A program made the translations under genes and the position numbers. 64,000 bases of DNA, from sequence record OR525698.1. The stretch is one strand, 5' to 3'. Of the stretch, positions 7,944 through 63,577 are shown piece by piece. The DNA is from Escherichia phage vB-Eco-KMB43. The notes below the pieces were generated by a model that was not told the DNA's origin, ran no database searches, and saw only the letters and a list, made by a program, of their open reading frames with translations. Every line of letters starts with the position of its first letter. Position 1 is the stretch's first letter.

Positions 7944-8699
7944 TTATACCTCATTCAGTTCTATATCAAGTTCATTTTCAATAATATAGGCATTAACTGC
8001 CCGTGCCGCATCATCTTCTGTGTCAAATCTTCCTATATACACACCGCGAACTTTAGCACCGTAATTACCTTGTTTTGGTACTTTGTAAACGTATCTATGA
8101 CGGGAACTTGCTGCTTTTTGGAGCTTCTTGCCATATTCAGACTTTGCATATTCTATATCATCAATCTCGTTTATACAAGACCTATCACCAAAATGTTTCA
8201 ACGCGGCAAGATTATATGCATACGCCGCGCCGATCTCGGAGGGAAAATATCCTAAATGTATCGACTTCCCATCCAACATTATTGCACCAGTCCAATAACC
8301 TTTATTCTTATTAAACGACACACCTTTATACTTCGAATATGTTTTGCATTTGGTCTTGCTCATATTCATATTATTTTGTTTGCGTGTCGTCTCTCTAAGG
8401 TTTTCAATGCGGCTATTATAACGATCTCGGTCTTTATGATCTATATACTTAGGACAATGACCATGAAACATATGATAGATAACACGGTGCATACGTTCGT
8501 ATCGCTCGCCAGTCCATACAATACGATACCCATCGGGGGTATCACTTCCAGCTAATCCGTTTATAACACCTTTTCGGTGCGGGTGAATCTTCCACCTAAG
8601 AAAACCATCATCATAATAAAACCGTGAATGATATAAATCATATAAACGTTTATCTTCTGGAGTCTTGTGTATAACCTCATATTTTAACATTGGTGACAT
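7944..8699 (-). CDS. free-standing HNH homing endonuclease with a C-terminal AP2 DNA-binding domain
   Basis: HRVIYHMFHG..IDHKDRDRYNSRIENLRETTRKQN (HNH) followed by YKGVS...W.A.I...GK..HLGYF.....AA.AYN.AA (AP2). The 5' end overlaps the dam 3' end by 23 nt. Confidence 0.85.
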   Translation of the reverse strand: MSPMLKYEVIHKTPEDKRLYDLYHSRFYYDDGFLRWKIHPHRKGVINGLAGSDTPDGYRIVWTGERYERMHRVIYHMFHGHCPKYIDHKDRDRYNSRIENLRETTRKQNNMNMSKTKCKTYSKYKGVSFNKNKGYWTGAIMLDGKSIHLGYFPSEIGAAYAYNLAALKHFGDRSCINEIDDIEYAKSEYGKKLQKAASSRHRYVYKVPKQGNYGAKVRGVYIGRFDTEDDAARAVNAYIIENELDIELNEV

Positions 8700-11050: not shown

Positions 11051-11084
11051 AATATAATCCTCACATCGTTCATTTGATGCGGCT

Positions 11085-11113
11085 ATTATAGATTAACCGC
11101 ATTTTCATGTCAA
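11085..11113 (-). promoter_or_regulatory. sigma70-type early promoter cassette
   Basis: TTGACA-17-TATAAT. Inverted repeat GCGGTTA/TAGCCGC flanks the -10. Confidence 0.8.
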
Positions 11114-11120
11114 ACAGTTT

Positions 11121-11429
11121 TTAAAAATCTTCTTCCGGTTTATATCGACCGTCATCGACTGGTTTTGGACTGAATCCTTTATGCGTGCGCGGCTTCGCTT
11201 CCGGTTTACCAGCAATCATCAAACCAAAACATTTCAGCCCCTTATAACACATAACAATATCAACCACGGTCCACGTTATAGGCCATAAGATTGCAGCAAT
11301 ACAAAATGCTCCTGTATCGACCTCTTTGGTGTCCTTGTCGAATCTGGCGTACAAGCAGAATACTAGATACGAGATCATTGCACCAGTAGTCCAGATATAA
11401 AGCACATTAACAATATCTTGTGTTGTCAC
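11121..11429 (-). CDS. hypothetical membrane protein
   Basis: Two hydrophobic helices (GAMISYLVFCLY, CIAAILWPITWTVVDIVM). GTG 11429 follows TAAGGAGGATAAT. ATG 11459 or 11495 are alternative starts. Confidence 0.55.
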   Translation of the reverse strand: MTTQDIVNVLYIWTTGAMISYLVFCLYARFDKDTKEVDTGAFCIAAILWPITWTVVDIVMCYKGLKCFGLMIAGKPEAKPRTHKGFSPKPVDDGRYKPEEDF

Positions 11430-15662: not shown

Positions 15663-15894
15663 TTGATTATATTTTATTCACGTCCATTTGTATAGTAGTG
15701 TTTGAATCGACCTTTGCTAAACTAGTTAAACATAGTAACCAATTCACCATCCCTTTCCAATGATAACCCTTCCTCGTCTTAGACGGGTCTTCCGATTCGG
15801 CAGTAATTGAACACGCGAAAGTATGAGGAAGCCAAATAGTTGTCTTAATGCTAGTATTCTTTTACTTCTGGTATGCATCCCACGGTGACTAACA

Positions 15895-26971: not shown

Positions 26972-27157
26972 TCAGAAATATGCAATATAGTTTGCCAGTC
27001 CTACAGAGTCATCATTCGGCATTGCTTTTACCGCCAGTTCAAACCCTGCTTCAACTTTCTGTTTAGCGGATTCTTCGTTATAACCCCAGATGACCAGAAT
27101 AGCTACTACGTTTTCTTTGCTTACTGCTTTCAGTGCTTTAGTGATGCGACGTGCCAT
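26972..27157 (-). CDS. hypothetical protein (61 aa)
   Basis: Single gene behind promoter cassette 27204..27232. Confidence 0.6.
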   Translation of the reverse strand: MARRITKALKAVSKENVVAILVIWGYNEESAKQKVEAGFELAVKAMPNDDSVGLANYIAYF

Positions 27158-27181: not shown

Positions 27182-27214
27182 CGTGTTTCGTTTCGATGGG
27201 TGTATTATGCTATA
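27182..27214 (-). repeat. 33-bp perfect direct repeat, copy 2
   Basis: Identical to 26204..26236, 978 bp away. Confidence 0.9.
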
Positions 27215-27232
27215 GGCGTGATCTGGTGTCAA
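27204..27232 (-). promoter_or_regulatory. sigma70-type early promoter cassette
   Basis: TTGACA-17-CATAAT, directly after terminator 27259..27286. The leader is identical over 33 nt to cassette 26226..26254. Confidence 0.8.
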
Positions 27233-27258
27233 CAACTTTTTTAAAAAAATTTTAGGCA

Positions 27259-27286
27259 ATAAAAAAGCCACTCCGAAGAGTGGCTT
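27259..27286 (-). terminator. intrinsic terminator with a C(UUCG)G tetraloop
   Basis: GCCACTC-TTCG-GAGTGGC followed by TTTTTTATT. Confidence 0.85.
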
Positions 27287-27430
27287 ATAGGGAAGGTAGC
27301 GAATCTTCCTTGTCTCCAACCTGCTAGCGGCCTAGCAAGTGAATGCTTTAGCGTACCGGATCACCCCATACGCTGTAATAAATGCGGCTAGGTGACGTCC
27401 AAATCATTCTAACCGCGCTGTCTTTAGTTC
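27259..27430 (-). ncRNA. candidate late-expressed structured small RNA (~170 nt)
   Basis: TATAAATA (27436..27443, minus strand) lies upstream. Four consecutive hairpins follow and the region ends in a C(UUCG)G intrinsic terminator plus U-run. There is no convincing ORF or SD. Confidence 0.35.
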
Positions 27431-27434
27431 ACTA

Positions 27435-27653
27435 TTATTTATATCGCTTTCTCTCGCGACGTTTTTGATCTTCTTCCTTGATAGAGTTAAACGCATCAAA
27501 AAGACACATGACACTGATAATGAACATAACCGTATTTTCTACGATATCCCACGGCTTCGCATCAGTACAGATCCCCCAAACGGTAAGAAATGCAAATAGT
27601 GCAGAAGAGATCACAAGCATGATACTTGCTAAGATATAAAAAGTCATTTTCAT
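27435..27653 (-). CDS. small membrane protein (72 aa) with a basic tail
   Basis: Two TM helices and a QKRRERKRYK tail. ATGA overlap with the upstream gene. Confidence 0.55.
   Translation of the reverse strand: MKMTFYILASIMLVISSALFAFLTVWGICTDAKPWDIVENTVMFIISVMCLFDAFNSIKEEDQKRRERKRYK
27436..27443 (-). promoter_or_regulatory. T4-type late promoter motif TATAAATA
   Basis: Exact TATAAATA on the minus strand. Overlaps the stop codon of ORF 27435..27653 and faces the ORF-free structured region. Confidence 0.5.
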
Positions 27654-28737: not shown

Positions 28738-28766
28738 TGTGGGGGGTATCTTACTACCCCCGTTTC
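28738..28766 (-). promoter_or_regulatory. sigma70-type early promoter cassette
   Basis: TTGACA-17-TAAGAT. Inverted repeat GGGGGTA/TACCCCC flanks the -10. Confidence 0.75.
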
Positions 28767-28782
28767 ATGTTGTCAACTGTTT

Positions 28783-63569: not shown

Positions 63570-63577
63570 TATAAATA
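63570..63577 (+). promoter_or_regulatory. late promoter TATAAATA downstream of the gene 23 terminator
   Basis: Exact motif 17 nt after the terminator U-run. A ~175-nt leader precedes the next ORF. Confidence 0.6.

Follow-up and report, generated by a model that had tools for sequence, protein, structure and literature searches.

The 64,000-nucleotide stretch of Escherichia phage vB-Eco-KMB43 DNA that we analysed (OR525698.1; hereafter the window) carries on its minus strand, at 27430..27259, an element that sequence comparisons support well as a real, strand-specific, structured, non-coding RNA element maintained by selection. Its most likely identity is that of a phage small RNA that has not been described before. 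We hold with about even confidence that it is a functional non-coding RNA specific to Krischvirus, serving both as the 3' UTR of an early transcript and as a discrete late RNA that probably acts in trans; a separate late RNA of about 170 nt is plausible. An earlier note on this DNA had proposed a small-RNA transcription unit with its own late promoter and terminator. Most of that proposal stands, in that the stretch is non-coding, structured on the minus strand and conserved, with a plausible late promoter and a strong terminator. The part that gave the RNA its own promoter is less secure, as one related sequence has lost the promoter motif TATAAATA and keeps the hairpins.

The element follows an early operon of a Krischvirus

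Segment 26900..27900 of the window matched 58 phage records at 95-99% identity, all of them Krischvirus (RB49, JSE, GEC-3S, ECD7 and relatives), and the source of the window is a Krischvirus, an RB49-like T4-type phage. The locus is the early-strand variable region located 3' of gene 1 (dNMP kinase), 57A and 57B/Acb1, and this region contains dmd together with a series of small membrane-protein genes. The equivalent stretch of RB49 lies between RB49ORF118c and RB49ORF117c and is without annotation. The features that bracket the element are:

28748..28776, minus strand: nearest early promoter upstream of the element (promoter scan)
27435..27653, minus strand: gene of a 72-aa predicted membrane protein, last gene of the dmd-containing early operon (ORF list)
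27259..27286, minus strand: intrinsic terminator with U-run, the stem-loop being part of a PeSL cassette (terminator scan)
27204..27232, minus strand: early sigma-70-type promoter (TTGACA-17-CATAAT) of the 61-aa DUF7421 gene, a repeated cassette (scan, 11 of 12 matches)

From the promoter at 28776 down to position 27286 the promoter and terminator scans gave no terminator on the minus strand, and the hairpins are therefore at least the 3' UTR of the dmd operon. The 72-aa protein has relatives of 81-93% identity and no Pfam match. The region is a mosaic, the window and contig L010 being 74 to 97% identical depending on the gene, and the element and the downstream gene share one relatively conserved block.

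That downstream gene (26972..27157, minus strand), which lies just 3' of the element, encodes the 61-aa DUF7421 protein and showed pN = 0 in the five relatives compared. Homologues with 75-80% amino acid identity are found in ~50-kb siphoviruses of E. coli and Shigella (e.g. tunus and ISF002), which we take to be T1-like, and this distribution suggests that unrelated phage groups have exchanged the gene. In the siphoviruses the DUF7421 gene is not accompanied by the hairpin element.

The description of this gap as one of only two long gaps in the early region holds roughly. A crude ORF map gave a few other ORF-free stretches of at least 90 nt, some of which are artefacts of the choice of ORFs in that map. 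The second gap so named (15663..15894, minus strand) folded no better than shuffled sequences (z = -0.66); it follows a 165-aa ORF, has a good terminator at its end and contains a 44-codon ATG frame.

The minus-strand RNA folds into four hairpins

The four hairpins that had been read from the sequence were all recovered in both the minimum-free-energy and the centroid folds of the minus strand. Without the terminator the fold has a free energy of -47.6 kcal/mol (z = -2.75), a value equalled by one of 200 shuffles, and with the terminator -65 kcal/mol (z = -3.65). The fold of the complementary plus strand is weaker (z = -1.38). Upstream of the terminator the parts of the RNA are, from 5' to 3':

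27417..27430, minus strand: predicted single-stranded 5' leader GAACUAAAGACAGC (unpaired in the folds)
27416..27384, minus strand: hairpin 1, an 8-bp stem GCGGUUAG/CUAGCCGC plus an inner 4-bp stem (folds)
27374..27350, minus strand: hairpin 2, a 7-bp lower stem, a G x G mismatch, a 2-3-bp upper stem and a hypervariable apical loop (folds)
27339..27320, minus strand: hairpin 3, CUUGCUAG-GCCG-CUAGCAGG, an 8-bp stem including one G-U pair (folds)
27310..27319, minus strand: purine-rich linker UUGGAGACAA, which contains GGAG (alignment)
27309..27291, minus strand: hairpin 4, GGAAG-AUUCGCUAC-CUUCC (folds)

The leader has a single variable column (G, A or a gap at 27422), the loop of hairpin 1 contains the palindrome GACGUC, and four G-U pairs are present in the stems of the reference. 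The linker UUGGAGACAA is unchanged among 21 aligned sequences, with one A to G change in a separate contig, L008 (OQVL01013596.1, 1..50). That contig continues as unrelated sequence after the equivalent of window position 27303, just past hairpin 3 and the linker, and is without hairpin 4 and the terminator; its tail matches nothing in the window or at the other loci. Either the contig end is chimeric or the rearrangement is real.

Three further structural ideas were tried and rejected. These were an enrichment of GGA motifs of the CsrA type, pairing of the hairpin 1 loop with linker 2 as a pseudoknot, and a longer form of hairpin 3; they gave near-expected counts or had pairs that are broken by natural variants.

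The pairings are kept in relatives

In an alignment of 21 sequences (A2) the 44 proposed pairs were standard pairs in 99.7% of the cells. The alignment is shallow: variation is absent from 37 of the 44 pairs, no covariation information comes from hairpin 3 or the terminator, and formal covariation is accordingly weak. A true double change was seen in only one pair, located in hairpin 2, which occurs as G-C, G-U and A-U. Single-sided stem changes number six (one in hairpin 1, four in hairpin 2 and one in hairpin 4) and all six result in G-U wobbles, where chance would make about half of transitions disruptive. The wobbles are legal only on the minus-strand RNA, being A x C mismatches on the other strand. 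In the shuffle controls for covariation the figures were 2-8 of 500 for measures based on score and cells and 145 of 500, which is not significant, for the counts of pairs and types. Variable columns were 7 of 86 among paired positions versus 16 of 82 among unpaired positions (p = 0.04).

The hairpins differ in how much they vary. The stem of hairpin 3 is without change in 21 distinct sequences, and its loop has one change. The stems of hairpins 1 and 4 have one change each, U-A to U-G and A-U to G-U, respectively, both of which leave pairing intact. Five of the ten pairs of hairpin 2 vary, with the closing pair seen as G-U, A-U or G-C, and its three unpaired cells all fall at one pair in an ambiguously aligned G-run. 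The hairpin 2 apex occurs as nine sequences (GUGA, GCGA, GUAA, UUAA, UUGA and others) that include indels of 1-2 nt, and all 11 of the 11 hairpin 2 variants fold alike, at -10.3 to -15.7 kcal/mol, which makes hairpin 2 the clearest instance of constraint on the structure. From hairpin 3 to the terminator, the 3' half, loops and linkers are almost as invariant as the stems.

The gap is under purifying selection

Given the mosaic character of the region, the gap was compared with silent sites. In five pairwise comparisons gap divergence was 0.017-0.047 per site, and synonymous divergence in the same five pairs was 0.33-0.54 for the upstream gene and 0.095-0.167 for the downstream gene. Diversity per site, calculated from 21 full-length distinct sequences, was:

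Gap stems: 0.0145
Gap unpaired positions, hairpin 2 apex excluded: 0.025
Third codon positions of the 61-aa gene: 0.046
Adjacent promoter cassette: 0.047
Third codon positions of the 72-aa gene: 0.133

In these 21 sequences 14 of 140 sites in the gap segregate. The corresponding figures are 16 of 61 third codon positions in the 61-aa gene (Fisher p = 0.005), 42 of 72 in the 72-aa gene (1e-13) and, for the promoter cassette next to the gap, 25 of 101 sites (p = 0.003). The low diversity of the gap means that the element evolves like a second codon position rather than like neutral DNA, and it is under purifying selection. Some of the conservation could come from the recombination history of the conserved block that it shares.

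The element is found only in Krischvirus

When the phage collection was searched by blastn with a 221-nt query, the element was present in 58 of 58 Krischvirus records at 96.8-100% identity. A search for Acb1 also gave 58 records at identities of at least 80%, and hence every Krischvirus in the collection carries the element. It was also found in nine metagenomic or viral contigs, some of which encode a 72-aa protein only 81-83% identical. These extra copies came from IMG/VR, metagenomes and Logan/ENA assemblies and were reached through the neighbouring protein or the hairpin 3 pattern.

Outside Krischvirus only terminator-like fragments matched in the phage collection (blastn), and the matches to two DNA patterns in IMG/VR and to one in metagenomes were only to Krischvirus-like sequences. 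A search of 185,579 species-representative genomes of bacteria and archaea gave no copy of hairpin 3. A covariance model of the element found nothing elsewhere in the window, nothing in the tRNA/rnaC/rnaD region of T4 (best E = 3.1 there) and nothing in those regions of Hadassahvirus, Tulanevirus and Muldoonvirus phages that are syntenic with its locus, the model being narrow (0.86 effective sequences), such that distant relatives could escape it. No second copy of the ~145-nt core (27287..27430) is present in the window. Rfam 15 gave no match at gathering thresholds over the whole window, and ARAGORN found no tRNA or tmRNA there. Thus, in the collections searched, the element is found only in the genus Krischvirus.

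Two leads to known sequences were discarded. The relaxed Rfam matches to EF3314_EF3315 (23.9 bits, threshold 100) and RNAI (22.8 bits, threshold 47) reflect generic terminator-type geometry, and as for a host origin, E. coli genomes gave only terminator-like matches of 24-26 nt.

The stretch has no credible open reading frame

That the stretch is non-coding, as first proposed, agrees with what we found: there is no credible ORF, and the changes seen in relatives within the 19-codon ATG frame are all non-synonymous. This frame does exist and, as had been described, lacks a Shine-Dalgarno (SD) sequence; it begins inside the loop of hairpin 1. A micro-protein translated from it, or from a TTG frame that begins at 27319, is scarcely credible to us. 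Both frames are open in the window and some annotation pipelines call ORFs here in relatives. However, neither frame has an SD sequence, and the 1-2-nt indels in the hairpin 2 loop shift the ATG frame such that its product would vary from 15 to over 51 aa among relatives. The TTG frame reads on across both the terminator and the promoter that follows, and differences in the lengths of the T-run and A-run shift it. Short hypothetical ORFs are annotated in or across the hairpins, on either strand, in the deposited Krischvirus records L002 (2004..2114), L020 (599..700), L022 (542..688) and L027 (508..651). The changes described above indicate that ORFs called across the hairpin region in relatives are spurious.

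A late-promoter motif overlaps the end of the upstream gene

The earlier reading of an exact late-promoter motif was borne out: TATAAATA is present at 27443..27436 (minus strand) as an exact match that overlaps the last codons (TAT AAA TAA) of ORF 27435..27653. The motif is the -10-type element of a T4-type late transcription unit and is oriented with the transcript. If the spacing is as in T4, late transcription would start near 27430.

The number of copies of TATAAATA is not informative, since the window contains eight versus the 5.7 expected from shuffles, which is not above chance. Their placement is another matter. Six of the seven other copies lie 20-50 nt 5' of a clear SD plus ATG (the seventh, at 63570, is ambiguous), and at random coding positions none is seen versus about five expected (Poisson p about 0.006). 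Such non-random placement suggests that the motif is tolerated only where it functions, and this favours a real late promoter at the element with a start near 27430.

TATAAATA is retained in 26 of 27 related sequences. The exception is the metagenomic contig L007 (MAVA01000028.1, 3330..3400; equivalent to window 27430..27460), where an AA insertion and a 14-nt deletion remove the motif and give the 72-aa ORF a new TGA as its stop, with all four hairpins intact. As TATAAATA doubles as coding sequence (Tyr-Lys-stop), it could be kept for the protein instead of for transcription.

The terminator belongs to a promoter cassette

The terminator scan agreed with the earlier note on the intrinsic terminator, which is AAGCCACTC-TTCG-GAGTGGCTT plus a T-run at 27286..27265. 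It has a 9-bp stem with five G-C pairs, a UUCG loop and a TTTTTTATT tail. The stem is invariant in relatives and the loop is altered in two. In one of these, phage FL15 (L022), the stem is unchanged and the TTCG equivalent to window 27274..27277 has become CGAA, its reverse complement; this is a loop inversion of the kind made by template switching at a palindrome.

Together with an AT-rich spacer and the TTGACA/CATAAT promoter the terminator forms a typical PeSL cassette (27286..27204). Such promoter-terminator cassettes have been described in RB49 and phi1, where they are documented to drive shuffling (PMC2839356), and were also treated in a second paper (PMC4122927); neither paper mentions the hairpin element. 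The hairpin core (27287..27430) does not qualify as a PeSL cassette, being single-copy in the window and without -35 and -10 hexamers. The metagenomic or Logan contigs L003, L011 and L012 end in the cassette region, about 200-250 nt past the 72-aa gene, as expected if assemblies break at a repeated promoter cassette.

The likeness of hairpin 1 to an early-promoter cassette that had been pointed out is real, although the second copy of the arms is at 11079..11100 rather than at 11085..11113. The pattern GCGGTTA...TAGCCGC occurs exactly twice in the 64 kb versus 0.01 expected, and the second copy flanks the -10 box of an early promoter, with the arms spaced by 8 nt rather than by the 19 nt of hairpin 1. 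Hairpin 1 and cassette 11079..11150 also share the position of a wobble, the extension TAGCCGCAT and the upstream sequence CGATATAAA, which suggests common ancestry, and a promoter cassette may have given rise to the 5' third of the element. The idea that part of the region is a decayed cassette thus fits hairpin 1 only, by its shared arms, and leaves the conservation of the rest unexplained.

The 7-mer GCGGTTA occurs 18 times on the two strands versus 5.8 expected (none of 100 shuffles reached 18), mostly in coding sequence. A 14-mer, TATAATAGCCGCAT, is common to the cassette near 11100 (11077..11090) and to the coding sequence of an ORF at 8407..8420 (minus strand), a match for which about 0.0005 would be expected by chance. 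The translation of this ORF (...DHKDRDRYNSRIENLRE...) looks to us like that of an HNH endonuclease.

How the element may act

The scheme that we favour has two phases. Early in infection the element would be the structured 3' end of a transcript from the ~1.5-kb early operon, in which dmd is accompanied by several genes for small membrane proteins. In the late phase a discrete RNA of ~170 nt would probably be made from the gp55-type promoter TATAAATA within the end of the 72-aa gene and would terminate at the intrinsic terminator shared with the early operon. Small RNAs of the "type I" 3'-UTR-derived class are laid out in this way. The near-invariance of the 3' half (hairpin 3, the GGAG linker, hairpin 4 and the terminator) beyond its stems points to sequence-specific recognition by a protein or by another RNA, and we infer action in trans rather than as a simple barrier to exonucleases.

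The literature searched contained no transcriptome of RB49 or another Krischvirus. We found no convincing base-pairing target in the window, where ungapped complementarity reached 12-15 nt at most, lay mostly in paired parts and was at the level of chance. Target searches by duplex folding of the whole RNA were set aside, as they gave unrealistically long interactions. Of the Hfq-type features, the U-tail is present, and no target in the window rose above chance.

The element might instead act only in cis, as a 3' UTR that stabilises, processes or insulates the mRNA of the early dmd operon. It could, for instance, stop 3' exonucleases, direct RegB or RNase E to cut at the GGAG linker or strengthen termination before the promoter cassette that follows; TATAAATA would then be kept for the C-terminus of the protein and would drive no meaningful RNA. 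We regard this as possible but rather unlikely. The sequence is certainly in the 3' UTR of the early operon, the relative that lacks TATAAATA retains all of the hairpins, TATAAATA is no more frequent in the window than chance predicts, and an invariant GGAG lies in a single-stranded linker, GGAG being the sequence for which RegB of T4 is specific. However, one terminator hairpin suffices against exonucleases, and in the 3' half it is the sequence of loops and linkers, not just their shape, that is conserved. Moreover, the other copies of TATAAATA are clearly at gene starts in six cases of seven (one being ambiguous), and none of the other cassette-flanked early units examined has such a UTR. 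It is improbable that the stretch is a non-functional relic, debris of PeSL shuffling with low diversity owing to a recent recombinational sweep of the block. The recurrence of the hairpin 1 arms, TAGCCGCAT and CGATATAAA in the cassette at 11079..11150, the mosaic structure of the region and the documented role of PeSL cassettes in shuffling in RB49 and phi1 (PMC2839356) would fit such an origin. Yet diversity is about threefold below that of silent sites in the gene that shares this conserved block and is also below that of the adjacent functional promoter cassette, and the presence of a hypervariable loop within a near-invariant scaffold shows that mutations had time to accumulate. In addition, the stem changes preserve pairing except for the three cells in the G-run, and the core is single-copy in the window.

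It seems very improbable that the DNA itself and not the RNA is the functional form, be it as a site for protein binding, as a signal for replication or recombination or as a cruciform. Hairpin 3 does contain a near-perfect inverted repeat (TGCTAG-GCCG-CTAGCA), and the arms of hairpin 1 flank a -10 box at 11079..11100, where not all of the arm sequence can be transcribed. Against this, in a cruciform or on the opposite strand the four G-U pairs of the reference and the six single-sided changes would all become A x C mismatches. Folding is also better for the minus-strand RNA than for its complement, and the arms of hairpin 1 are spaced differently in their two copies. A more elaborate version of an RNA function is that of a scaffold on which the hairpin 2 loop provides specificity in an arms race. 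The loop could serve as an RNA decoy for, or an inhibitor of, a nuclease or sensor in host defence, or it could determine whether co-infecting Krischviruses exclude one another or are compatible. An arms-race loop is conceivable because the variable hairpin 2 apex sits on a near-invariant molecule within a counter-defence island (Acb1/57B and dmd); we consider this proposal decidedly improbable. No co-varying partner of the loop was found in the flanking DNA. We retain the small RNA with an early 3' UTR phase and a probable late phase as the working reading.

Comparison with known RNAs and cassettes

T4-type phages are among the best-studied viruses and, to our knowledge, have been assigned almost no non-coding RNAs besides tRNAs and the T4 RNAs C and D. 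The present element is unannotated in all 58 of the 58 deposited genomes, and it adjoins counter-defence genes, a setting where new factors of phage-host interaction emerge. Its description would correct spurious ORF annotations and add a family to RNA databases. It is also a tractable candidate owing to its simple modular fold, its predicted late promoter, the clear purifying selection on it and its genus-wide presence among the genomes examined.

The element belongs to no curated family. As in ColE1 RNAI and other multi-hairpin RNAs of Rfam, a run of stem-loops ends in a terminator, but the locus has no antisense partner and the scores are far below gathering thresholds. The PeSL cassettes are likewise related in part, since the element's terminator belongs to one and the arms of hairpin 1 recur in another, whereas the ~145-nt core is single-copy, has no -35 and -10 hexamers and is more conserved than the cassette that it adjoins.

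The nearest parallel among T4-type phages is with the T4 RNAs C and D (rnaC and rnaD; species 1 and 2 RNAs), which are also small non-coding RNAs of a phage of this type. They lie in the same variable region 3' of 1-57A-57B, on the early strand, and are followed by a terminator and an early promoter. Synteny is the sole link, as neither blastn nor the covariance model gave any similarity. In T4 the two RNAs stand at the end of a cluster of tRNAs, and a T arm like that of a tRNA is part of rnaC, whereas the Krischvirus window lacks tRNA genes; Hadassahvirus, Muldoonvirus and T4 all have tRNA genes in the region 3' of 1-57A-57B. The fold of T4 rnaD, unlike that of the element, is not unusually stable.

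Bacteria have type I 3'-UTR-derived small RNAs, of which DapZ and MicL are examples. The element shares with these a promoter inside the end of the upstream coding sequence, a structured body free of ORFs and a Rho-independent terminator shared with the mRNA. It differs in that the predicted promoter is a phage late (gp55-type) motif rather than a site for a host sigma factor and in that the search for a seed and targets came up empty. By analogy, it is this 3'-UTR-derived small RNA with an internal promoter that the layout of the Krischvirus element most resembles.
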